Shown: positions 1 through 14,000 of the stretch, piece after piece | How the letters are laid out: each line of letters starts with the position of its first letter | Numbering within the stretch: the first letter of the stretch is position 1 | Source of the DNA: Escherichia coli | GTDB lineage: Bacteria; Pseudomonadota; Gammaproteobacteria; Enterobacterales; Enterobacteriaceae | Assembly: GCF_003334315.1 (NCBI RefSeq) | Contig: NZ_QOWR01000010.1 | Direction: 5' to 3' (one strand) | Length of the DNA stretch: 64,000 bases | Made by a program: the position numbers and the translations under genes | The notes under the pieces: model-generated | Told to the model about the DNA's origin: nothing | Seen by the model: the letters and a program-made list of their open reading frames with translations, nothing else | Databases searched by the model: none

Positions 1-320
<320 letters not shown>

Positions 321-383
321 GCCTCTCATCTGTATAAATTTCGAACTACACTTAACTGGCTTCTCTTAACTGAGGTCACCATC

Positions 384-827
384 ATGCCGTTAAGTCCCTA
401 CCTCTCTTTTGCCGGTAACTGTTCCGACGCGATTGCCTATTATCAACGTACGTTGGGCGCGGAACTGCTCTATAAAATCAGCTTCGGCGAAATGCCAAAA
501 TCAGCGCAGGACAGCGCCGAGAACTGCCCTTCCGGAATGCAATTTCCCGATACCGCCATCGCCCACGCCAACGTGCGCATTGCCGGAAGCGACATCATGA
601 TGAGCGATGCTATACCGTCAGGAAAAGCCAGCTACTCCGGCTTTACGCTGGTGCTCGATTCGCAACAGGTCGAAGAAGGAAAACGCTGGTTTGATAACCT
701 TGCCGCTAACGGAAAAATTGAAATGGCCTGGCAGGAAACTTTCTGGGCGCATGGTTTCGGCAAAGTCACCGATAAATTTGGCGTACCGTGGATGATTAAT
801 GTCGTCAAACAACAACCAACGCAATAA
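384..827 (+). CDS. yjdN: PhnB-like VOC/glyoxalase-fold protein (147 aa)
   Basis: ORF begins MPLSPYLSFAGNCSDAIAYYQ, recognised as PhnB/YjdN. It sits directly upstream of phnC. Confidence 0.85.
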   Translation: MPLSPYLSFAGNCSDAIAYYQRTLGAELLYKISFGEMPKSAQDSAENCPSGMQFPDTAIAHANVRIAGSDIMMSDAIPSGKASYSGFTLVLDSQQVEEGKRWFDNLAANGKIEMAWQETFWAHGFGKVTDKFGVPWMINVVKQQPTQ

Positions 828-853
828 CCCGCCGGGAGGCCCGCCCTCCCGCA

Positions 854-915
854 CTGTCATCGAATTCCCGTTAACTCCTCATCTGTTAGTCACTTTTAAT
901 TAACCAAATCGTCAC
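854..915 (+). promoter_or_regulatory. Pho box (PhoB-binding direct repeats) of the phnC promoter
   Basis: ctgtcat at 854 and ctgttagtcacttttaattaaccaaatcgtcac at 883-915 resemble the CTGTCAT-type Pho box repeats, ending about 45 bp upstream of the phnC ATG. The RBS gggagg is at 946-951. Confidence 0.6.
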
Positions 916-959
916 AATAATCCGCCACGATGGAGCCACTTTTTTAGGGAGGCTGCATC

Positions 960-1748
960 ATGCAAACGATTATCCGTGTCGAGAAGCTCGCCAAAACCTT
1001 CAATCAGCATCAGGCGCTGCATGCGGTTGATCTGAACATTCATCACGGTGAAATGGTGGCTCTGCTTGGGCCGTCGGGTTCCGGCAAATCCACCCTTTTA
1101 CGTCACTTAAGCGGTTTGATTACCGGCGATAAATCTGTCGGTAGCCATATCGAGCTGCTGGGCCGCACAGTCCAGCGCGAAGGCCGTCTGGCGCGCGATA
1201 TCCGCAAAAGCCGCGCCAACACCGGCTACATCTTCCAACAATTCAACCTGGTGAACCGCCTGAGCGTACTGGAGAACGTGCTGATTGGCGCGCTCGGCAG
1301 CACGCCGTTCTGGCGCACCTGTTTTAGCTGGTTTACCCGCGAGCAGAAACAACGCGCGTTACAGGCGCTGACCCGCGTTGGCATGGTGCATTTTGCCCAT
1401 CAACGCGTTTCCACCCTCTCCGGCGGACAGCAGCAGCGTGTGGCGATTGCCCGCGCGCTGATGCAGCAGGCGAAGGTGATTCTGGCCGATGAACCCATCG
1501 CCTCGCTGGACCCGGAATCCGCCCGCATCGTGATGGACACCCTGCGCGACATCAATCAGAACGACGGCATCACCGTGGTCGTCACGCTGCATCAGGTGGA
1601 TTACGCCCTGCGCTACTGCGAACGCATCGTCGCCCTGCGCCAGGGGCACGTTTTCTACGACGGCAGCAGCCAACAGTTTGATAACGAACGTTTTGACCAT
1701 CTCTACCGCAGCATTAATCGCATCGAAGAGAACGCGAAAGCTGCCTGA
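960..1748 (+). CDS. phnC: Phosphonate ABC transporter ATP-binding protein
   Basis: 262 aa with Walker [13 protein letters not shown] signature LSGGQQQR and Walker B ILADEP. First gene of the phn cluster. Confidence 0.95.
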
Positions 1749-1772
1749 CATCCCCATCATTGAGGAAAACGA

Positions 1773-2789
1773 ATGAACGCTAAGATAATTGCCTCGCTGG
1801 CCTTCACCAGCATGTTCAGCCTCAGCACCCTGTTAAGCCCGGCACACGCCGAAGAGCAGGAAAAGGCGCTGAATTTCGGCATTATTTCAACGGAATCACA
1901 GCAAAACCTGAAACCGCAATGGACGCCATTCTTACAGGATATGGAGAAGAAGCTGGGCGTGAAGGTGAACGCCTTCTTTGCCCCAGACTACGCAGGCATT
2001 ATCCAGGGAATGCGCTTCAATAAAGTGGATATCGCCTGGTACGGCAACCTGTCGGCAATGGAAGCGGTGGATCGCGCCAACGGCCAGGTCTTCGCCCAGA
2101 CGGTCGCGGCGGATGGATCGCCAGGTTACTGGAGCGTGTTGATCGTCAACAAAGATAGTCCGATCAACAAACTGAACGATCTGCTGGCGAAGCGGAAAGA
2201 TCTCACCTTCGGCAATGGCGATCCTAACTCCACCTCTGGCTTCCTCGTCCCCGGTTACTACGTCTTTGCCAAAAACAATATCTCCGCCAGCGACTTTAAG
2301 CGCACCGTCAACGCTGGGCATGAAACCAACGCGCTGGCCGTCGCCAACAAGCAGGTGGATGTTGCCACCAACAACACCGAAAACCTCGACAAGCTGAAAA
2401 CCTCCGCGCCAGAGAAGCTGAAAGAACTGAAGGTGATCTGGAAGTCGCCGCTGATCCCAGGCGATCCGATCGTCTGGCGCAAGAATCTCTCCGAAACCAC
2501 CAAAGACAAGATCTACGACTTCTTTATGAACTACGGAAAAACGCCGGAAGAGAAAGCGGTGCTGGAACGCCTGGGCTGGGCCCCGTTCCGCGCCTCCAGC
2601 GACCTGCAACTGGTGCCGATTCGCCAGCTCGCACTGTTTAAAGAGATGCAGGGCGTAAAAAGCAATAAAGGACTGAATGAGCAGGACAAGCTGGCAAAAA
2701 CCACCGAGATTCAGGCGCAGCTGGATGACCTGGACCGCCTGAACAACGCGTTAAGCGCGATGAGTTCGGTAAGTAAAGCGGTGCAGTAA
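1773..2789 (+). CDS. phnD: Phosphonate ABC transporter periplasmic binding protein
   Basis: 338 aa with an N-terminal signal peptide ([26 protein letters not shown]). Position between phnC and phnE. Confidence 0.95.
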
Positions 2790-2878
2790 ATCGTAGGTCG
2801 GATACATCCGACAATGTGCAGGCGTTGATGCCGGATGCGGTGCAAGCACCTTATCCGGCCTACAGACCGGAGCCAAAC
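2790..2878. repeat. REP element between phnD and phnE
   Basis: gccggatgcggtgcaagcaccttatccggcctaca palindromic REP motif. The 5' extension of ORF 2816..3658 runs through this REP and is not the true start. Confidence 0.8.
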
Positions 2879-3658
2879 ATGCAAACCATCACCATCGCCC
2901 CACCCAAGCGCAGCTGGTTCTCGCTTCTGAGCTGGGCCGTTGTTCTCGCCGTGCTGGTCATCTCGTGGCAGGGCGCGGAAATGGCCCCGCTTACGCAGAT
3001 TAAAGACGGCGGCAACATGGCAACCTTCGCCGCCGACTTCTTCCCGCCCGATTTCAGCCAGTGGCAGGATTACCTCACCGAAATGGCCGTCACGCTGCAA
3101 ATCGCCGTCTGGGGCACCGCGCTGGCGGTGGTTCTCTCCATCCCCTTCGGTCTGATGAGCGCCGAAAACCTGGTGCCGTGGTGGGTTTACCAGCCCGTTC
3201 GCCGCCTGATGGACGCCTGCCGCGCCATTAACGAAATGGTCTTCGCCATGCTGTTCGTGGTCGCCGTCGGTCTCGGCCCGTTCGCTGGCGTGCTGGCGCT
3301 GTTTATCCACACCACCGGCGTGCTCTCCAAGCTGCTTTCCGAAGCGGTGGAAGCGATTGAACCCGGCCCGGTGGAAGGCATTCGCGCCACCGGCGCTAAC
3401 AAGCTCGAAGAGATCCTCTACGGCGTGCTGCCACAGGTGATGCCGCTGCTGATCTCCTACTCCCTCTATCGTTTCGAATCCAACGTCCGCTCGGCGACCG
3501 TCGTCGGCATGGTCGGTGCAGGCGGGATCGGCGTCACCCTGTGGGAAGCGATTCGCGGTTTCCAGTTCCAGCAAACCTGCGCCCTGATGGTGCTCATCAT
3601 CGTCACGGTCAGCCTGCTGGATTTCCTCTCTCAACGGTTGCGTAAGCACTTTATCTGA
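2879..3658 (+). CDS. phnE: Phosphonate ABC transporter permease, intact reading frame
   Basis: Start chosen at ATG 2879 ([25 protein letters not shown]...), downstream of the REP. Continuous ORF to 3658 with hydrophobic membrane-protein character. Confidence 0.85.
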
Positions 3659-3669
3659 TAAGCGAGGCA

Positions 3670-4404
3670 TTGATAGCTATGCACTTGTCTACACATCCGA
3701 CCAGCTACCCAACACGCTATCAGGAGATAGCCGCAAAACTTGAGCAGGAGCTTCGTCAACACTACCGCTGCGGCGACTATCTTCCCGCCGAGCAGCAACT
3801 GGCGGCGCGCTTTGAGGTGAACCGCCACACCCTGCGCCGCGCCATCGACCAGCTGGTGGAAAAAGGCTGGGTACAGCGCCGTCAGGGCGTCGGCGTACTG
3901 GTGCTGATGCGCCCGTTCGATTACCCGCTCAACGCCCAGGCGCGTTTTAGCCAGAACCTGCTGGATCAGGGCAGCCATCTCACCAGCGAAAAACTGCTGT
4001 CTGTGCTGCGCCCGGCCTCCGGTCACGTTGCTGACGCGCTGGGGATTACCGAGGGCGAGAACGTTATCCACCTGCGCACCCTGCGTCGGGTCAACGGCGT
4101 CGCGCTCTGTTTAATCGACCACTACTTTGCGGACCTCGCCCTCTGGCCGACGCTGCAACGCTTCGACAGCGGCTCGCTGCACGATTTTCTGCGCGAGCAA
4201 ACCGGAATTGCGCTGCGCCGCAGCCAGACGCGGATCAGCGCCCGCCGCGCCCAGGCCAAAGAGTGCCAGCGTCTTGAAATCCCGAATATGTCGCCGCTGC
4301 TGTGCGTGCGCACCCTTAACCACCGTGACGGTGAAAGCAGCCCGGCGGAGTACTCCGTCAGCCTGACGCGCGCCGACATGATTGAATTCACTATGGAGCA
4401 CTGA
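3670..4404 (+). CDS. phnF: GntR-family transcriptional regulator of the phn operon
   Basis: 244-aa ORF with an N-terminal HTH region (YLPAEQQLAARFEVNRHTLRRAIDQLVEKGW) and a UTRA-like C-terminus. The true start may be the ATG at 3679. Confidence 0.9.
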   Translation: MIAMHLSTHPTSYPTRYQEIAAKLEQELRQHYRCGDYLPAEQQLAARFEVNRHTLRRAIDQLVEKGWVQRRQGVGVLVLMRPFDYPLNAQARFSQNLLDQGSHLTSEKLLSVLRPASGHVADALGITEGENVIHLRTLRRVNGVALCLIDHYFADLALWPTLQRFDSGSLHDFLREQTGIALRRSQTRISARRAQAKECQRLEIPNMSPLLCVRTLNHRDGESSPAEYSVSLTRADMIEFTMEH

Positions 4405-4857
4405 ATGCACGCAGATACCGCGACCCGCCAGCACTGGATGTCCGTACTGGCGCACAGCCAACCGGCTGAACTGGCAGCCCGCCTGAACGCGCTGAACATC
4501 ACCGCCGACTATGAAGTGATCCGCACCGCCGAAACCGGCCTGGTGCAGATTCAGGCGCGAATGGGCGGTACCGGCGAACGCTTTTTTGCCGGCGACGCCA
4601 CGCTGACCCGCGCCGCCGTACGCCTGACTGACGGCACCCTCGGCTACAGCTGGGTGCTGGGGCGCGACAAACAGCACGCCGAACGCTGCGCGCTGATTGA
4701 CGCGTTGATGCAGCAATCTCGCCATTTTCAAAACTTATCAGAAACCCTTATTGCCCCGCTGGACGCTGACCGTATGGCACGCATTGCCGCACGCCAGGCC
4801 GAAGTGAACGCCAGCCGGGTCGACTTCTTTACGATGGTTCGCGGAGACAACGCATGA
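4405..4857 (+). CDS. phnG: C-P lyase complex subunit PhnG
   Basis: 150 aa, [19 protein letters not shown]... Overlaps the phnH start. Confidence 0.9.
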
Positions 4858-5438
4858 CCCTGGAAACCGCTTTTATGCTTCCCGTGCAGGATGCCCAGCA
4901 CAGTTTTCGTCGCCTGTTAAAAGCCATGAGCGAGCCGGGCGTGATTGTCGCCCTGCATCAGCTCAAGCGCGGCTGGCAGCCGCTGAATATCGCCACCACC
5001 AGCGTGCTGCTGACGCTGGCCGATAACGACACGCCGGTGTGGCTTGCCACGCCATTAAGTAACGATATCGTCAGCCAGAGCCTGCGTTTTCATACCAACG
5101 CGCCGCTGGTTAGCCAGCCGGAACAGGCGACCTTCGCGGTGACGGATGAGGCGATTTCCAGCGAACAGCTCAACGCCCTTTCCACCGGCACCGCCGTTGC
5201 GCCGGAAGCGGGCGCGACGCTGATTTTACAGGTCGCCAGCCTGAGCGGCGGGCGTATGTTGCGCCTCACCGGCGCGGGCATTGCCGAAGAACGAATGATC
5301 GCCCCGCAGCTGCCGGAATGCATTCTGCACGAACTCACCGAGCGCCCGCACCCGTTCCCGCTCGGCATCGACCTGATCCTGACCTGCGGTGAGCGCCTGC
5401 TGGCTATCCCGCGAACCACTCATGTGGAGGTGTGCTGA
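4854..5438 (+). CDS. phnH: C-P lyase complex subunit PhnH
   Basis: 194 aa. ATGA overlap with the phnG stop and a 1-nt overlap with the phnI ATG at 5438. Confidence 0.9.
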
Positions 5439-6502
5439 TGTACGTTGCCGTGAAAGGGGGCGAAAAGGCGATCGACGCCGCCCACGCCCTGCAAGAGAGC
5501 CGACGCCGGGGCGATACCGATTTGCCTGAACTGAGCGTCGCCCAGATTGAACAGCAGCTTAATCTCGCGGTGGATCGCGTGATGACCGAAGGCGGCATTG
5601 CCGACCGCGAACTGGCGGCGCTGGCGCTGAAACAGGCCAGCGGCGATAACGTTGAAGCGATTTTCCTGCTGCGCGCCTACCGCACCACGCTGGCAAAGCT
5701 GGCGGTAAGCGAGCCGCTCGACACCACCGGGATGCGTCTCGAACGGCGTATTTCGGCGGTTTATAAAGACATTCCCGGCGGCCAGCTGCTTGGCCCAACC
5801 TACGACTACACCCATCGCCTGCTCGATTTCACCCTGCTGGCAAACGGTGAAGCGCCGACGCTGACCACCGCCGACAGCGAACAACAGCCGTCGCCGCACG
5901 TTTTCAGCCTGCTGGCGCGTCAGGGGCTGGCGAAGTTTGAAGAAGATAGCGGCGCACAGCCGGATGACATCACCCACACGCCGCCGGTTTACCCCTGCTC
6001 ACGTTCTTCCCGTTTGCAGCAGTTAATGCGCGGGGACGAAGGCTATTTGCTGGCGCTGGCCTACTCTACCCAGCGCGGTTACGGGCGCAACCACCCGTTC
6101 GCGGGCGAGATCCGCAGTGGTTACATCGACGTGTCGATTGTGCCCGAAGAGCTGGGATTTGCGGTAAACGTCGGCGAACTGCTGATGACCGAGTGTGAAA
6201 TGGTCAACGGTTTTATCGATCCGCCGGATGAACCACCGCATTTTACACGCGGCTACGGGCTGGTGTTCGGCATGAGCGAGCGCAAAGCGATGGCAATGGC
6301 GCTAGTCGATCGTGCGTTGCAGGCCCCGGAGTACGGCGAGCACGCGACAGGCCCGGCGCAGGATGAAGAGTTCGTGCTGGCACATGCCGACAATGTCGAA
6401 GCCGCAGGCTTTGTCTCGCACCTCAAACTCCCCCACTACGTCGATTTCCAGGCCGAACTGGAGCTACTCAAACGTCTGCAACAGGAGCAGAACCATGGCT
6501 AA
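5438..6502 (+). CDS. phnI: C-P lyase complex subunit PhnI (ribosyl-triphosphate-forming nucleosidase)
   Basis: ATG at 5438 ([16 protein letters not shown]...), 354 aa. The ORF-track start at 5432 is an upstream GTG in the same frame. Confidence 0.9.
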   Translation: MYVAVKGGEKAIDAAHALQESRRRGDTDLPELSVAQIEQQLNLAVDRVMTEGGIADRELAALALKQASGDNVEAIFLLRAYRTTLAKLAVSEPLDTTGMRLERRISAVYKDIPGGQLLGPTYDYTHRLLDFTLLANGEAPTLTTADSEQQPSPHVFSLLARQGLAKFEEDSGAQPDDITHTPPVYPCSRSSRLQQLMRGDEGYLLALAYSTQRGYGRNHPFAGEIRSGYIDVSIVPEELGFAVNVGELLMTECEMVNGFIDPPDEPPHFTRGYGLVFGMSERKAMAMALVDRALQAPEYGEHATGPAQDEEFVLAHADNVEAAGFVSHLKLPHYVDFQAELELLKRLQQEQNHG

Positions 6503-7340
6503 TCTGAGCGGCTACAACTTTGCCTACCTCGACGAGCAGACCAAACGCATGATCCGCCGCGCCATCTTAAAAGCGGTAGCGATCCCCGGTTATCAGGTAC
6601 CTTTTGGCGGGCGCGAGATGCCAATGCCATACGGCTGGGGAACCGGCGGCATACAGCTCACCGCCAGCGTGATTGGCGAAAGCGACGTGCTGAAGGTGAT
6701 TGACCAGGGCGCAGACGACACCACCAACGCCGTGTCGATCCGCAACTTCTTTAAGCGCGTGACCGGGGTAAACACCACTGAACGTACGGACGATGCGACG
6801 CTTATCCAGACGCGCCATCGCATCCCCGAAACGCCGCTGACCGAAGATCAGATAGTTATTTTCCAGGTGCCAATCCCCGAACCGCTGCGCTTTATCGAGC
6901 CGCGCGAAACGGAAACCCGCACCATGCACGCGCTGGAAGAGTACGGCGTGATGCAGGTGAAACTGTATGAAGATATCGCCCGCTTCGGTCATATCGCCAC
7001 TACCTACGCCTATCCGGTGAAGGTGAACGGGCGCTACGTAATGGACCCGTCGCCGATCCCGAAATTCGATAACCCGAAAATGGACATGATGCCCGCCCTG
7101 CAACTGTTCGGCGCGGGGCGCGAGAAGCGCATCTATGCGGTGCCGCCGTTTACCCGCGTGGAAAGCCTCGATTTCGACGATCACCCGTTCACCGTTCAGC
7201 AGTGGGATGAGCCGTGCGCCATCTGCGGATCGACCCACAGCTATCTTGATGAAGTGGTGCTGGATGACGCCGGAAACCGCATGTTTGTCTGCTCCGATAC
7301 CGATTATTGCCGCCAACAGAGCGAGGCAAAAAACCAATGA
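6495..7340 (+). CDS. phnJ: C-P lyase catalytic subunit PhnJ
   Basis: ATG at 6495 (MANLSGYNFAYLDEQTKRMIRR...), 281 aa, with the C-terminal Cys cluster CAICGS...VCSDTDYC. The longer ORF from 6312 is an out-of-context 5' extension overlapping phnI. Confidence 0.9.
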   Translation: MANLSGYNFAYLDEQTKRMIRRAILKAVAIPGYQVPFGGREMPMPYGWGTGGIQLTASVIGESDVLKVIDQGADDTTNAVSIRNFFKRVTGVNTTERTDDATLIQTRHRIPETPLTEDQIVIFQVPIPEPLRFIEPRETETRTMHALEEYGVMQVKLYEDIARFGHIATTYAYPVKVNGRYVMDPSPIPKFDNPKMDMMPALQLFGAGREKRIYAVPPFTRVESLDFDDHPFTVQQWDEPCAICGSTHSYLDEVVLDDAGNRMFVCSDTDYCRQQSEAKNQ

Positions 7341-8095
7341 ATCAACCGTTACTTTCGGTCAATAACCTGACCCACCTTTACGCGCCGGGCAAAGGCTTTA
7401 GCGATGTCTCTTTTGATTTATGGCCGGGGGAAGTGCTGGGCATTGTCGGGGAGTCCGGCTCCGGGAAGACCACGCTGCTGAAATCAATCTCCGCGCGCCT
7501 GACGCCGCAGCAGGGGGAAATTCACTATGAAAACCGTTCCCTCTATGGCATGAGCGAGGCCGACCGCCGTCGCCTGCTGCGCACCGAATGGGGCGTGGTG
7601 CATCAGCATCCGCTCGACGGCCTGCGCCGCCAGGTCTCGGCAGGCGGCAATATCGGCGAGCGGCTGATGGCGACCGGGGCGCGTCATTACGGCGATATTC
7701 GCGCCACCGCGCAGAAGTGGCTGGAAGAGGTGGAAATTCCCGCCAACCGGATCGACGACCTGCCGACCACCTTTTCCGGTGGCATGCAGCAGCGTTTGCA
7801 GATTGCCCGCAATCTGGTGACGCATCCGAAGCTGGTGTTTATGGACGAGCCAACCGGCGGGCTGGATGTGTCGGTGCAGGCACGCCTGCTCGATCTGCTG
7901 CGCGGCCTGGTGGTGGAGCTGAACCTGGCGGTGGTGATTGTCACCCATGATTTAGGCGTTGCCCGCCTGCTGGCGGACCGTTTGCTGGTGATGAAACAGG
8001 GGCAAGTGGTGGAGAGTGGGTTAACCGACCGCGTGCTCGACGACCCGCACCATCCGTACACCCAGTTGCTGGTGTCATCGGTTTTGCAGAATTGA
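7337..8095 (+). CDS. phnK: C-P lyase ABC-ATPase-like subunit PhnK
   Basis: [15 protein letters not shown]..., Walker [10 protein letters not shown], 252 aa. ATGA overlap with phnJ. Confidence 0.9.
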
Positions 8096-8200
<105 letters not shown>

Positions 8201-8205
8201 GAAAA

Positions 8206-8886
8206 ATGATTAACGTACAAAACGTCAGTAAAACCTTCATCCTGCACCAGCAAAACGGCGTGCGCCTGCCCGTCCTCAACCGCGCCTCGCTCATCGTCAA
8301 CGCGGGCGAATGCGTGGTGCTCCACGGCCATTCCGGCAGCGGCAAATCAACCCTGCTGCGCTCGCTGTACGCCAACTATCTGCCCGACGAAGGGCAAATC
8401 CAGATTAAACACGGTGACGAATGGGTAGACCTGGTCACCGCGCCAGCCCGCAAAGTGGTGGAGATCCGCAAAACCACCGTCGGCTGGGTGAGCCAGTTTC
8501 TGCGCGTTATCCCGCGCATTTCGGCGCTGGAAGTAGTAATGCAGCCGCTGCTCGATACCGGCGTACCGCGTGAAGCCTGCGCCGCTAAAGCCGCCCGATT
8601 ACTGACGCGCCTGAACGTGCCTGAACGCCTGTGGCACCTTGCACCATCGACCTTCTCCGGCGGCGAACAGCAGCGCGTCAACATCGCCCGCGGCTTTATC
8701 GTCGACTACCCGATTCTGCTGCTCGACGAACCTACCGCCTCGCTGGACGCCAAAAACAGCGCCGCGGTGGTGGAACTGATTCACGAAGCCAAAGTCCGTG
8801 GCGCAGCCATCGTCGGCATCTTCCATGACGAAGCTGTACGTAATGACGTTGCCGACCGCCTGCACCCAATGGGAGCCTCTTCATGA
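8206..8886 (+). CDS. phnL: C-P lyase ABC-ATPase-like subunit PhnL
   Basis: ATG at 8206 ([18 protein letters not shown]...), Walker [10 protein letters not shown], 226 aa. The upstream part of ORF 8092.. reads through the REP and is spurious. Confidence 0.9.
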
Positions 8887-10019
8887 TTATCAATAACGTC
8901 AAATTGGTGCTGGAAAACGAAGTGGTACACGGTTCACTGGAGGTGCAGGACGGCGAAATCCGCGCCTTTGCCGAAAGCCAGAGCCGCCTGCCGGAGGCGA
9001 TGGACGGCGAAGGCGGCTGGCTGCTGCCGGGGCTGATTGAGCTGCATACCGATAATCTGGATAAATTCTTCACCCCGCGCCCGAAAGTTGACTGGCCTGC
9101 CCACTCGGCGATGAGCAGCCACGACGCGCTGATGGTGGCGAGCGGCATCACCACCGTACTGGATGCCGTGGCAATTGGCGACGTGCGCGACGGCGGCGAT
9201 CGGCTGGAGAATCTTGAGAAGATGATCAACGCCATCGAAGAGACGCAGAAACGCGGCGTCAACCGCGCCGAGCACCGTCTGCATCTGCGCTGCGAACTGC
9301 CGCATCACACCACGCTGCCGCTGTTTGAAAAACTGGTGCAGCGCGAGCCGGTGACGCTGGTGTCGCTGATGGACCACTCGCCGGGCCAGCGCCAGTTCGC
9401 TAACCGCGAGAAGTACCGTGAATATTATCAGGGCAAATACTCCCTCACCGATGCGCAGATGCAGCAGTACGAAGAAGAGCAACTGGCGCTTGCCGCACGC
9501 TGGTCACAGCCTAATCGCGAATCCATCGCCGCAATGTGCCGCGCAAGACAAATTGCCCTCGCCAGCCACGATGACGCCACGCATGCCCACGTTGCCGAAT
9601 CACACCAGCTTGGCAGCGTCATCGCCGAATTTCCCACCACGTTTGAAGCAGCGGAAGCCTCGCGCAAGCATGGCATGAACGTGCTGATGGGCGCGCCAAA
9701 TATCGTGCGCGGCGGCTCGCACTCCGGCAACGTGGCGGCCAGTGAACTGGCGCAGCTTGGCCTGCTGGATATACTCTCTTCCGACTACTACCCCGCCAGC
9801 CTGCTGGATGCGGCGTTCCGCGTCGCCGATGACGAGAGCAACCGCTTTACGCTACCGCAGGCGGTGAAGCTGGTGACCAAAAATCCGGCCCAGGCGCTGA
9901 ATCTTCAGGATCGCGGGGTGATTGGCGAGGGCAAACGCGCCGACCTGGTGCTGGCGCATCGCAAGGGCAATCACATTCATATCGACCACGTCTGGCGTCA
10001 GGGGAAAAGGGTGTTCTGA
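8883..10019 (+). CDS. phnM: Amidohydrolase-family C-P lyase component PhnM
   Basis: 378 aa. ATGA overlap with phnL. Confidence 0.9.
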
Positions 10020-10576
10020 TGACGGGAAAACTGATTTGGTTAATGGGGCCGTCCGGCTCCGGGAAAGACAGCCTGCTGGCGGAACTCCGCCTGCGGGAAC
10101 AGACGCAGCTACTGGTGGCGCATCGCTACATCACGCGCGATGCCAGCGCCGGAAGTGAAAACCATATCGCCCTGAGTGAGCGGGAGTTTTTTTCCCGCGC
10201 GGGGCAAAATCTGCTGGCCTTAAGCTGGCACGCTAACGGTCTGTATTATGGCGTCGGCGTCGAGATTGACCTCTGGCTGCACGCCGGATTCGACGTGGTG
10301 GTCAACGGTTCACGCGCGCATTTGCCGCAGGCACGGGCGCGCTATCAATCGGCGCTGCTGCCCATTTGCTTACAGGTGTCGCCGGAGATCCTGCGCCAGC
10401 GCCTGGAAAACCGTGGCCGTGAAAACGCCAGTGAAATTAACGCCCGCCTGGCGCGCGCCGCCCGCTATACTCCACAGGATTGCCATACGCTCAACAATGA
10501 CGGCAGCCTGCGCCAGTCGGTCGACACGCTGCTGACGCTGATTCATCAGAAGGAGAAACACCATGCCTGCTTGTGA
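10019..10576 (+). CDS. phnN: Ribose 1,5-bisphosphate phosphokinase PhnN
   Basis: 185 aa with P-loop GPSGSGKDS. Confidence 0.9.
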
Positions 10577-10997
10577 GCTTCGCCCGGCCACGCAGTACGA
10601 CACCGACGCGGTTTACGCGCTGATTTGCGAGCTAAAACAGGCGGAGTTTGACCACCACGCGTTTCGCGTGGGCTTTAACGCCAACCTGCGCGACCCGAAC
10701 ATGCGCTACCATCTGGCGCTGCTGGATGGCGAAGTTGTCGGCATGATCGGCCTGCATTTGCAGTTTCATCTGCATCATGTCAACTGGATCGGTGAAATTC
10801 AGGAACTGGTGGTGATGCCGCAGGCGCGCGGCCTGAACGTCGGTAGCAAGTTGCTGGCGTGGGCAGAAGAAGAAGCCCGCCAGGCCGGGGCCGAAATGAC
10901 CGAGCTTTCGACCAACGTGAAGCGCCACGACGCACACCGTTTCTATCTGCGCGAAGGCTACGAGCAGAGCCACTTCCGCTTCACGAAGGCGCTGTAA
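10563..10997 (+). CDS. phnO: GNAT aminoalkylphosphonate N-acetyltransferase PhnO
   Basis: 144 aa. 14-nt overlap with phnN. Confidence 0.9.
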
Positions 10998-10998
10998 C

Positions 10999-11757
10999 AT
11001 GAGCCTGACCCTCACGCTCACCGGCACCGGCGGCGCACAGGGCGTTCCGGCATGGGGCTGCGAGTGTGCGGCCTGCGCCAGAGCGCGGCGCTCACCGCAG
11101 TATCGCCGCCAACCGTGCAGCGGCGTAGTGAAGTTTAACGAGGCGATCACCCTGATCGACGCCGGGCTGCACGATCTCGCCGATCGCTGGTCGCCCGGAT
11201 CGTTCCAGCAGTTTTTGCTGACGCATTATCATATGGATCACGTCCAGGGGCTGTTTCCGCTGCGCTGGGGCGTTGGCGATCCGATCCCGGTTTACGGCCC
11301 GCCGGATGACCAGGGCTGCGACGATCTGTTTAAACATCCGGGCCTGCTTGATTTCAGCCACACGGTGGAACCGTTTGTGGTGTTTGATTTGCAGGGGTTA
11401 CAGGTCACGCCCCTGCCGCTCAACCACTCAAAACTGACCTTCGGTTATCTGCTGGAAACGGCACACAGCCGGGTGGCGTGGCTGTCTGACACCGCAGGCT
11501 TGCCAGAAAAAACGCTGAAATTTTTACGCAATAATCAGCCGCAGGTAATGGTGATGGATTGCAGTCACCCGCCGCGCGCGGATGCACCGCGTAATCACTG
11601 TGATTTAAATACCGTGCTTGCGCTGAATCAGGTTATCCGCTCGCCACGGGTGATTCTGACCCATATCAGCCACCAGTTTGATGCGTGGCTGATGGAAAAC
11701 GCACTACCGTCAGGGTTTGAGGTGGGGTTTGATGGGATGGAGATTGGGGTGGCGTGA
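10999..11757 (+). CDS. phnP: Metallo-beta-lactamase-fold phosphodiesterase PhnP
   Basis: 252 aa with the HxHxDH motif ([11 protein letters not shown]). Last gene of the operon. Confidence 0.9.
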
Positions 11758-11759
11758 TG

Positions 11760-11895
11760 AGAGGGAATGTGCGCGCTGGCCCCCTCACCCTAACCCTCTC
11801 CCCAGAGGGGCGAGGGGACCGATTGTGCTCGATATTGAATATTGCGCTCGTTTTCTCCCTCTCCCCATTGGGGTGAGGGGCGATGCCTGCTCCAT
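11760..11895. repeat. Pair of GC-rich imperfect palindromes flanking an AT tract
   Basis: ccctcaccctaaccctctccccagaggggcgagggga and ctccctctccccattggggtgaggggcg lie between the convergent phnP and yjdP genes. I did not confirm a repeat-family assignment. Confidence 0.5.
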
Positions 11896-11903
11896 ACCCA
11901 ACC

Positions 11904-12233
11904 TCATCGCCCATACTCATCTTCCATTCTCCGCTCTTCATCCTCCAGTTGCCGACGCTCCTGATCAAGCTGGCGCTGGCGATCGTCCAGCTGCCTGCGG
12001 CGATCTTCAAACTGGCGGCGGCGGTCGTCATATTGTCTGCGCCGATCGTCGCTCACTTCACGCTGCCAGCCGTCGTCGCGCGAATCTTCATAGTCTCGCC
12101 CACGGTCAGGGTTATAAGCGTCATTAATCGCCTGCTGAATATTGCCAATGGTGTCGTCGATAATATCGGCCTGGGCCGGAACGGTGGACAGCGTGAGCAG
12201 GGTGAATAAAAGAAATAGCGGAAAGCGTTTCAT
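11904..12233 (-). CDS. yjdP: Small secreted protein with Arg/Asp/Glu/Gln-rich periodic repeats
   Basis: 109 aa with signal peptide MKRFPLFLLFTLLTLSTVPAQA, then DDRRRQYDDRRRQFEDRRRQLDDRQRQLDQERRQLEDEERR. Confidence 0.8.
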   Translation of the reverse strand: MKRFPLFLLFTLLTLSTVPAQADIIDDTIGNIQQAINDAYNPDRGRDYEDSRDDGWQREVSDDRRRQYDDRRRQFEDRRRQLDDRQRQLDQERRQLEDEERRMEDEYGR

Positions 12234-12301
12234 TAGCCAACCTCAAAAAGAAACTCTATCCACATTAATCATTACTCATCCATGCAAGTAGTGGATGAAT
12301 C

Positions 12302-12751
12302 TCAATTTCTCCGCTGCTCTATTGCCGTAATCGCCTCCACGCGTTGTTGATGACGACCGCCTTCGTACTGTGCGCCCAGCCACGCATCCACAATCATTTT
12401 TGCCAGTTCGAGGCCAACCACTCGTGAACCAAAAGCCAGCACGTTGGTGTCGTTATGCTGCCGCGAAAGTTGCGCGGAATAAGGTTCGCTACAGACGACC
12501 GCGCGAATTCCGGCAAACTTGTTCGCCGCTATCGAAATACCGACGCCAGTACCACAAATCAAAATCCCGCCATCAACCTCTCCGCCAGCAACAGCCAGTG
12601 CGACTTGACTGGCGTAATGCGGATAATCAGTACGCTCTGACGACCAGGTTCCTTTATCAATCACTTCAACGCCACGCTCAACTAAATGTGCCACTATTTC
12701 ATGTTTTAAAATGAAACCGACATGATCACAGCCAAATGCAATCTTTTTCAT
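12302..12751 (-). CDS. rpiB: Ribose-5-phosphate isomerase B / allose-6-phosphate isomerase
   Basis: 149 aa MKKIAFGCDHVGFILKHEIVAHLVERGVEV..., RpiB/LacAB family. Confidence 0.95.
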   Translation of the reverse strand: MKKIAFGCDHVGFILKHEIVAHLVERGVEVIDKGTWSSERTDYPHYASQVALAVAGGEVDGGILICGTGVGISIAANKFAGIRAVVCSEPYSAQLSRQHNDTNVLAFGSRVVGLELAKMIVDAWLGAQYEGGRHQQRVEAITAIEQRRN

Positions 12752-13109
12752 TCATCTTCCCCGCCCGTGCAAAACTTCACAATTAAAAAACATTTGTGAT
12801 GTAAATGAATTAAAAACACCCAAAATCGATGAATTACGCCTTCCTGATCTGTTTTACAGAGTTACATCTGACAGCGCAATAGCGTTAAAGACACTCACCA
12901 TCCAGCAACATCTATCATCTAAAAAACCAGAAAAACAAATAACATCATGTTTTTAAAGTGATTGAATGAAATAAAATTTTAAGCCACTCTCCATTGTTCA
13001 CAACAAAACAAACTTTATAAATTTTATTTTTTTGTGAAGTCGCCGGCATCTTTTCTGTTCTTGCTGTGGTGATATAGTGGCGTCTTCAATTCAAGGACAA
13101 GAGAACGTG

Positions 13110-14000
13110 ATGAGCCAGTCAGAGTTTGATTCAGCGCTTCCGAACGGTATAGGGTTAGCGCCTTACCTGCGAATGAAGCAGGAAGGAATGACAGAAAATG
13201 AAAGCCGCATCGTGGAGTGGTTACTCAAACCCGGTAACCTGAGTTGTGCACCCGCAATTAAAGATGTCGCAGAAGCTCTGGCGGTATCTGAAGCGATGAT
13301 AGTTAAGGTATCAAAGCTGCTGGGGTTTAGCGGCTTTCGTAACTTACGCAGTGCGCTGGAAGATTATTTTTCTCAGTCAGAACAGGTATTGCCTTCCGAG
13401 TTGGCTTTTGATGAAGCGCCGCAGGATGTGGTGAATAAGGTATTTAACATCACTTTACGCACCATTATGGAAGGTCAATCGATCGTCAACGTTGATGAGA
13501 TCCACCGTGCCGCCCGCTTTTTCTATCAGGCCAGACAGCGGGATTTGTACGGTGCCGGAGGATCAAATGCTATCTGTGCTGATATACAGCACAAGTTCTT
13601 GCGTATTGGCGTACGCTGTCAGGCCTATCCGGACGCTCACATCATGATGATGTCCGCTTCGTTGTTACAGGAAGGAGATGTTGTGCTGGTAGTGACCCAT
13701 TCCGGGCGAACCAGTGATGTAAAAGCGGCCGTAGAACTGGCAAAAAAGAACGGGGCAAAGATTATTTGTATAACCCATAGCTACCATTCACCAATAGCGA
13801 AACTGGCCGATTATATTATTTGCTCACCAGCCCCGGAAACGCCGTTATTAGGTCGTAATGCCTCGGCAAGAATATTACAACTAACTTTGCTGGACGCTTT
13901 TTTTGTCTCTGTCGCCCAGCTCAACATTGAACAAGCTAATATTAATATGCAAAAAACCGGCGCAATTGTTGATTTCTTCTCACCAGGCGCGCTGAAATAA
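13110..14000 (+). CDS. rpiR: RpiR-family regulator (HTH plus SIS domain) of rpiB and the als operon
   Basis: Start at the ATG giving MSQSEFDSALPNGIGLAPYLR... (296 aa). The ORF track opens at 13077. Confidence 0.85.
   Translation: MSQSEFDSALPNGIGLAPYLRMKQEGMTENESRIVEWLLKPGNLSCAPAIKDVAEALAVSEAMIVKVSKLLGFSGFRNLRSALEDYFSQSEQVLPSELAFDEAPQDVVNKVFNITLRTIMEGQSIVNVDEIHRAARFFYQARQRDLYGAGGSNAICADIQHKFLRIGVRCQAYPDAHIMMMSASLLQEGDVVLVVTHSGRTSDVKAAVELAKKNGAKIICITHSYHSPIAKLADYIICSPAPETPLLGRNASARILQLTLLDAFFVSVAQLNIEQANINMQKTGAIVDFFSPGALK

Follow-up and report, generated by a model that had tools for sequence, protein, structure and literature searches.

How one phosphate-starvation promoter can serve fourteen genes at very different RNA levels is the question raised by the phnCDEFGHIJKLMNOP operon of Escherichia coli, which is the known PhoB-activated operon for carbon-phosphorus (C-P) lyase. 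We analyzed the operon in a 64,000-nucleotide (nt) stretch of E. coli contig NZ_QOWR01000010.1 (assembly GCF_003334315.1), referred to here as the window. An earlier note had listed seven start/stop overlaps between phnG and phnO, and had suggested that repetitive extragenic palindromic (REP) elements after phnD and after phnK divide the operon into transporter, regulator and lyase parts of different mRNA stability. Based on the analysis below, we consider it likely that two ordinary post-transcriptional devices operate on the one transcript, namely coupled cistrons and mRNA segments bounded by REP pairs, although the segments are divided differently from what the note had claimed.

RNA abundance changes in steps at two REP pairs

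The phn genes are co-oriented in the canonical order phnC to phnP behind a PhoB-dependent promoter. Only two long spacers occur in the operon, phnD/phnE (D/E, 89 nt) and phnK/phnL (K/L, 110 nt), and both hold an inverted REP pair (Table 1). RNA levels were taken from Fitzgerald et al. (mBio 2023, PMC10294691), who grew MG1655 and a phoB deletion strain in low phosphate for RNA sequencing (RNA-seq). The counts in Table S1 of that study are DESeq2-normalized but not length-normalized, and were here divided by gene length; values per kilobase (kb) are means of two wild-type replicates, both of which agree. Two other sources did not enter these values: PMC10080781 gives fold changes alone, in columns of unclear meaning, and PMC7657598 gives lists of genes alone. 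The phnC–phnD segment (segment 1) is the densest in RNA, phnE–phnK (segment 2) lies at 11k–30k counts per kb, and phnL–phnP (segment 3) is lowest, at 2k–10k. In MG1655 the density drops 9.3-fold from phnD to phnF, at the D/E REP pair, and 8.2-fold from phnK to phnL, at the K/L REP pair. Density also climbs toward each REP pair, with phnD at 3.4 times the value of phnC and phnK at 2.6 times that of phnH, which fits the pattern expected if the hairpins shield upstream RNA from 3′ exonucleases. Because the K/L spacer is identical to that of MG1655 at 116 of 116 positions, the RNA data transfer directly to the K/L junction of the window.

RNA-seq under phosphate starvation, the check proposed in the earlier note, thus gives a per-gene density that is non-uniform and steps at both REP pairs, but it does not distinguish stability from attenuation. 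The existence of REP-bounded segments is supported by the two steps; their limits are not those of the note, since the actual segments are phnCD, phnEFGHIJK and phnLMNOP. The gene phnF is set apart by no REP and is contiguous with phnG. The first REP pair splits the transporter genes, and the second divides the genes for the lyase, even those for the PhnK2L2 partners (PMC9947105).

All 14 genes depend on PhoB from one promoter in the same data set (PMC10294691). In the phoB deletion strain, residual counts for phnN, phnO and phnP (87–229) exceed those for phnC–phnM (4–61; Table S1 of PMC10294691), which suggests that some weak transcription enters the distal genes without need of PhoB.

Structure and position of the REP pairs

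REP elements are present after phnD and after phnK as claimed, with the refinement that each is an inverted pair resembling a bacterial interspersed mosaic element (BIME) and not a single REP. The copy at 8102–8135 matches the 34-nt REP consensus exactly (GCCGGATGCG...CTTATCCGGCCTAC), and the D/E copy at 2830–2863 has four differences from it, located in the upper stem and loop, with pairing kept. Each spacer also has a partner copy (GTAGGTCGGATA...CATCCGAC) in inverted orientation. Both pairs are extragenic, between annotated coding sequences. At a limit of three mismatches the window contains seven consensus matches versus none expected from shuffles, and the median number of REP-matching places per E. 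coli genome is 24–25.

Folded as RNA, the D/E pair reaches −35.4 kcal/mol (z −3.5) and the K/L pair −60.7 kcal/mol (z −7.1), and in neither case did any shuffle fold as well; the C/D and E/F spacers are unstructured and contain no repeats. The D/E stem begins at 2793, 3 nt past the phnD stop codon. The extended K/L stem begins directly past the phnK stop codon at 8096, with the REP consensus following at 8102, and both pairs thus start 0–6 nt past a stop codon, i.e. less than 16 nt. REP no. 1 of the D/E pair (2793–2812) has a 16-nt internal deletion of the hairpin tip compared with K-12 and most E. coli, which weakens the D/E fold from −50.5 kcal/mol for the K-12-type spacer with two full REPs to the value given above. 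Approximately 129 records match the D/E region of the window at 99% identity or more.

We reject intrinsic (Rho-independent) termination at the REP pairs, since a terminator scan called neither pair and a T-tract is missing after both. In the region, neither terminator-like sites (20 versus 13.2 ± 4.0 in shuffles) nor promoter-like sites (3 versus 4.3 ± 2.2) are enriched. At the 3′ end of phnK, beside the K-to-L RNA step, the scan picks out 8058–8085 as a weak terminator-like site, a hairpin of 5 pairs followed by a tail rich in T; it is no more than a match to the consensus.

Upstream of phnL, its frame has no stop codon across the K/L REP pair as far as a TTG at 8092, which shares bases with the phnK stop codon (TTGA), and the frame is likewise open upstream in Citrobacter and Klebsiella. 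We nevertheless reject an N-terminally extended PhnL, because the frame is closed in an E. coli variant with a BoxC palindrome in this spacer. Two further points count against the extension: the added peptide would be Arg-rich REP read-through, and the conserved part of the spacer comprises the ATG at 8206, a GAGG Shine-Dalgarno sequence and the 20 nt before. We judge the open frame to be a by-product of GC-rich sequence.

Protection or attenuation

We propose that the inverted REP hairpins bound three mRNA abundance classes, phnCD >> phnE–K > phnL–P. The abundance steps are present in the published K-12 data, and we infer that the REPs cause them, most likely by blocking 3′-to-5′ exonucleases and thereby protecting the upstream segment, possibly in combination with partial termination. 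At D/E the hairpin would allow the binding-protein gene to be over-expressed relative to the membrane components of the transporter, in the classic arrangement.

An alternative, which strikes us as possible but rather doubtful, is that the main effect of the REP/BIME hairpins is to attenuate transcription in part, with only a minor role as mRNA stability barriers. Attenuation at BIMEs has been documented (Espeli et al. 2001, as cited in PMC12306157), and phn shares with the cases described there an inverted REP pair in a spacer and a downstream drop in RNA. Also in its favor are the size of the RNA steps, the uncoupling of translation from transcription at K/L, which alone among the junctions of phnF–phnP is not coupled, and the T-rich hairpin at the phnK 3′ end. 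The missing T-tracts and the negative scan argue in the other direction, as does substantial read-through, which follows from the PhoB dependence of all 14 genes from one promoter. Protection of 3′ ends accounts better than termination alone for the climb in density toward the REPs (C to D; H to I to J to K), a trend that suggests a stability component.

Occupants of the spacers across strains and taxa

Each junction region is kept in at least 5388 of 5426 E. coli genomes. BoxC, the PIT/TMECO family of intrastrand-triplex palindromes (identified from PMC4666352), replaces the REPs at D/E in 1339 of the 5426 genomes (25%) and at K/L in 546 (10%), as inferred from coverage thresholds. BoxC alleles are exemplified by E. 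coli 600468, MB06171 and strain 573, which were compared with window positions 2790–2878 and 8096–8205; their spacers measure 61 or 124 nt at D/E and 176 nt at K/L, with folds of −24.7 and −91.9 kcal/mol, respectively. Citrobacter freundii carries its own type of REP at D/E and at K/L, and in Klebsiella pneumoniae the K/L site holds a REP pair of Klebsiella type that folds at −60.6 kcal/mol. In Variovorax, Haloarcula and a Proteus plasmid phnK and phnL overlap, and in Ruegeria, Paracoccus, Oceanisphaera, Thermus, Sinorhizobium and Sodalis the K/L gap is short or unstructured (58 nt without structure in Sodalis). Directly after phnD, stable hairpins of unrelated sequence are found in Sodalis, Oceanisphaera, Ruegeria and Thermus; Citrobacter likewise has a hairpin at this position, and Variovorax has no stable one. 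The post-phnD hairpin would fit classic over-expression of a binding protein, while the post-phnK hairpin is an Enterobacteriaceae-specific feature of less certain functional importance.

That the occupants are polymorphic can also be taken to mean that the REP pairs are neutral passengers in the few spacers left free, and that the RNA steps have other causes: Rho termination once ribosomes have left the RNA in any long untranslated spacer, polarity from the phnE frameshift of K-12, or 5′-to-3′ operon decay. The BoxC replacements, the 16-nt deletion in one REP of the window strain, the different REPs in Citrobacter (both sites) and Klebsiella (K/L), the unstructured Sodalis K/L gap and the description of BoxC loci as unstable (PMC4666352) are all in keeping with this view. 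We nonetheless regard it as unlikely, for the 8- to 9-fold steps are abrupt and coincide exactly with the hairpins, the density climbs toward each of them in the signature of 3′-protected fragments, and the K-to-L step is not attributable to phnE. Moreover, all variants sampled at either site in E. coli, Citrobacter and Klebsiella fold into strong hairpins, with energies from −24.7 to −91.9 kcal/mol, and the C/D and E/F gaps are free of repeats. Dense overlap elsewhere in the operon may leave D/E and K/L as the only room for mobile palindromes.

Since species-specific REPs (E. coli and Citrobacter; Klebsiella at K/L), BoxC alleles and unrelated post-phnD hairpins all occupy these positions, one may tentatively ask whether D/E and K/L are selected for a strong RNA hairpin as such, regardless of the element that provides it, with REP and BoxC as interchangeable modules. 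We put this forward as a speculative possibility that is less probable than its opposite. If true, mobile palindromes would have been domesticated as modular "segment boundaries" that set mRNA per nt at approximately 5:1 for phnCD:phnF–K and 3:1 for phnF–K:phnL–P (phnE is uncounted in K-12), and hairpins 0–3 nt past the stop codons would also tune the translation of PhnD and PhnK.

Overlapping junctions and probable translational coupling

The overlaps claimed for G/H, H/I, I/J, J/K, L/M, M/N and N/O are all seven exact on the window. Two further tight junctions were not in the earlier list: phnF and phnG abut with a 0-nt gap (TGAATG), and phnO and phnP are separated by 1 nt. With remaining gaps of 24 nt at C/D and 20 nt at E/F in addition to the two long spacers, nine of the ten junctions from phnF to phnP overlap or abut, and K/L is the sole real spacer among them. 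Real and exact as the overlaps are, their density is ordinary: they occur at 7/13 phn junctions versus 9/16 gene pairs of operons in the adjacent 50 kb of the same chromosome (nrfA-G, mdtNOP-ytcA, alsBACEK, actP-yjcH-acs and yjbQR; Fisher p = 1.0), and restricting the comparison to phnG–phnP (7/9 versus 9/16, p = 0.40) gives a similar picture. Among bacterial operon junctions, 4-nt and 1-nt overlaps are the most frequent.

Every overlapped start has its own Shine-Dalgarno sequence within the upstream gene, with pairing energies of −5.6 to −10.6 kcal/mol; 134 internal ATGs used as controls average −2.7 ± 1.9 kcal/mol, and 4.5% of them reach −6 or lower. Because stop and start overlap or abut and a Shine-Dalgarno sequence lies inside the preceding gene, ribosomes that end one cistron could go on to start the next. 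Sequestration of the downstream starts, considered as a mark of obligatory coupling, was dropped because the accessibility of the start regions is unremarkable.

Conservation was assessed in E. coli and 12 other taxa with annotated phn clusters found by tblastn with PhnJ in records of plasmids or of chromosomes mislabeled as such. Represented are Gamma-, Beta- and Alphaproteobacteria, Thermus, one member of the Bacillota and the archaeon Haloarcula. G/H overlap in 11 of the 13 taxa, H/I overlap or lie at most 4 nt apart in all 13, I/J overlap in 12 (13 with the Citrobacter start corrected, see below), J/K overlap in 13 of 13, and L/M in 8 of 8. Klebsiella, Sodalis and Haloarcula share the 8-nt overlap at I/J. 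The Phn(GHIJ)2K and Phn(GHIJKL)2 complexes are built from PhnG, H, I, J, K and L (PMC9947105); since these products form one complex, coupled and proportionate synthesis of PhnG–L is a sensible reading. The conserved G-H-I-J-K overlaps would fit coupled synthesis of the PhnGHIJK complex, and the linked output may extend from the subunits of both assemblies to the pathway enzymes. The junction geometry that the note had described is accordingly exact, and for G to K it is kept across phyla; translational coupling itself, which the note took from it, is plausible from that geometry.

The overlaps might instead be by-products of genome compaction and of drift in start and stop codons, with no role in protein ratios. 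An overlap density equal to that of neighboring operons is in keeping with such an origin, and independent initiation would be possible given unsequestered starts with Shine-Dalgarno sequences of their own. We think this very unlikely, as G/H, H/I, I/J, J/K and L/M remain overlapped or abutting across Proteobacteria, Deinococcota, Bacillota and Archaea despite wide sequence divergence and rearrangement elsewhere in the cluster, and the products assemble into one complex.

Two annotation matters surfaced in the comparison. In Citrobacter freundii the annotated phnJ start (8049 in its locus) probably lies too far downstream. Starting instead from the GTG at 7992, which has AGGAGG before it, gives an N-terminus homologous to that of E. 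coli PhnJ and an 11-nt overlap with phnI. Several PLSDB "plasmid" records of 4.8–5.4 Mb are evidently chromosomes, e.g. Klebsiella pneumoniae "plasmid unnamed2" of 5.37 Mb (CP125156.1), whose phn cluster is without phnCDE and phnO.

Points that weigh against coupled cistrons and REP-bounded segments

Several observations count against the combination of coupling and REP boundaries that we favor. First, the steady-state counts are correlative and fit both a stability barrier and partial termination, which they cannot separate; they come from one laboratory and from a K-12 strain and not from the strain of the window, and the phnE frameshift of K-12 could add Rho polarity to the D-to-F step, although it is excluded as a cause of the K-to-L step. 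Second, the density of phnL is below those of phnM and phnN, an order not expected from a simple barrier model. Third, PhnK and PhnL are stoichiometric partners (PMC9947105), yet their genes lie on opposite sides of the K/L step. Fourth, among the taxa compared the K/L hairpin is restricted to Enterobacteriaceae, and is therefore not a conserved requirement of the pathway. Fifth, under the rule of Liang, Rudd and Deutscher (2015), as summarized in PMC12306157, a REP less than 16 nt from a stop codon lowers translation of the upstream gene. Both phn pairs lie within this distance (0–6 nt), and stems starting 0–3 nt past the stop codons should then lower translation of PhnD and PhnK, which is awkward for over-expression of PhnD. 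Such an effect would involve stalled ribosomes, mRNA cleavage and tmRNA tagging at the stop codon ahead of the REP. Sixth, start-region accessibility (0.34–0.71 versus 0.40 ± 0.09 in controls) gives no sign of sequestered downstream starts, so that these starts, with their own Shine-Dalgarno sequences, could be used independently. Finally, a search of the accessible literature for work tying phn to REPs or to translational coupling gave nothing on either subject: no paper linking the phn REPs to the RNA steps, and no mapped 3′ ends or REP deletions for phn.

Relation to known systems

REP-bounded differences in mRNA abundance are a textbook mechanism, for which the malE-malF and hisJ-hisQ junctions of transport operons are the paradigm. 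The phn operon likewise has a REP pair immediately after the binding-protein gene and before the permease gene, and RNA is higher upstream than downstream of both its REP pairs, approximately 9-fold in the steady state of MG1655 for the cistron upstream of the first. It departs from that type in that phnC precedes phnD within the protected segment and in having a further REP pair among the catabolic genes. Stabilization of upstream cistrons by REPs is attributed to Newbury et al. 1987 in PMC12306157, which summarizes three activities of these elements: REP hairpins can block exonucleolytic decay, BIMEs can attenuate transcription, and a REP less than 16 nt from a stop codon can lower translation.

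The gene order, the overlaps, the PhoB promoter and the REP/BoxC elements of phn are already known and have been annotated for decades, and REP-bounded phn segments need no new biology; in this sense the finding matters little beyond housekeeping. The operon does offer two natural REP/BoxC allelic series at defined sites with published 8- to 9-fold RNA steps, which makes it well suited to asking whether REP and BoxC can stand in for each other as boundaries of mRNA segments, and how protection of the mRNA is weighed against stalled translation when a REP lies 0–3 nt past a stop codon.

Gene layout and neighboring elements

Positions 1–14000 of the window are 99.9% identical to many E. coli chromosomes with annotated phn genes, and 5273 of 5426 complete E. 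coli genomes contain at least 80% of this region. The gene coordinates in Table 1 are those of the RefSeq annotation of a 99.9% identical strain, re-checked on the window sequence, where all 14 phn open reading frames are intact and begin with ATG. The Pho box upstream of phnC is the PhoB site of the single phosphate-starvation promoter. At 3284–3299 phnE has two copies of the 8-bp unit GCTGGCGT and is thus the functional allele, whereas in MG1655 a third copy is present and the gene is annotated as a pseudogene with a frameshift; the window is therefore of non-K-12 origin. The window shares the 14 genes and their order with the operon of K-12 and B strains, and the junction coordinates, PhoB site and K/L spacer with that of MG1655; it differs from K-12 in the functional phnE and in the first D/E REP, which is 16 nt shorter. 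The window carries a complete, functional phn operon with an architecture typical of multi-subunit enzyme operons.

Table 1. Features of the phn region. Positions refer to the window; RNA density is given in normalized counts per kb for MG1655 in low phosphate.
Feature	Position	Strand	RNA density	Remarks
yjdN	384-827			RefSeq annotation of best match
PhoB binding site (Pho box)	899-916	+		exact match to MG1655 ChIP-seq site ATTAACCAAATCGTCACA (PMC10294691 Table 1)
Segment 1 (phnC, phnD)	960-2789	+		
phnC	960-1748	+	41k	ABC ATPase
phnD	1773-2789	+	140k	periplasmic binding protein; stop codon 2787-2789
D/E REP pair	2793-2863	+		REP no. 1 2793-2812, REP no. 2 2830-2863 (intact); inverted arms
Segment 2 (phnE-phnK)	2879-8095	+		
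phnE	2879-3658	+		functional allele
phnF	3679-4404	+	15k	
phnG	4405-4857	+	16k	
phnG/H junction	4854-4857	+		ATGA, 4-nt overlap; Shine-Dalgarno GGAG 6 nt upstream, −6.6 kcal/mol
phnH	4854-5438	+	11k	
phnH/I junction	5436-5440	+		TGATG, 1-nt overlap (5438); Shine-Dalgarno GGAGGUG, −10.6 kcal/mol
phnI	5438-6502	+	15k	
phnI/J junction	6495-6502	+		8-nt overlap ATGGCTAA
phnJ	6495-7340	+	20k	
phnJ/K junction	7337-7340	+		ATGA, 4-nt overlap
phnK	7337-8095	+	30k	stop codon 8093-8095
K/L BIME	8096-8187	+		REP 8102-8135 (exact consensus), inverted REP 8149-8187
Segment 3 (phnL-phnP)	8206-11757	+		
phnL	8206-8886	+	3.6k	
phnL/M junction	8883-8886	+		ATGA, 4-nt overlap
phnM	8883-10019	+	7.0k	
phnM/N junction	10019	+		TGATG, 1-nt overlap
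phnN	10019-10576	+	9.9k	
phnN/O junction	10563-10576	+		14-nt overlap
phnO	10563-10997	+	5.8k	
phnP	10999-11757	+	2.2k	
BoxC (PIT/TMECO) palindrome pair	11781-11880	.		motifs at 11781, 11794, 11857, 11871; between phnP and yjdP (11758-11903)

Beyond phnP, yjdP and rpiB lie on the opposite strand. The BoxC pair between phnP and yjdP folds at −63.8 kcal/mol (z −3.1), one of its copies is TMECO no. 22 of MG1655 in PMC4666352, and the pair is likely to be the 3′ boundary of the operon; BoxC thus occurs after phnP in the window, where D/E and K/L hold REPs instead. An Rfam search gave no structured-RNA match inside the operon (321 to 12400). Upstream of yjdN, positions 41–320 hold three tandem 100-bp units of a REP325-type array. 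Each unit carries an exact REP consensus on the minus strand (41–74, 141–174 and 241–274) and matches Rfam naRNA4 (RF02564, nucleoid-associated noncoding RNA 4) on the plus strand at 107–111 bits.

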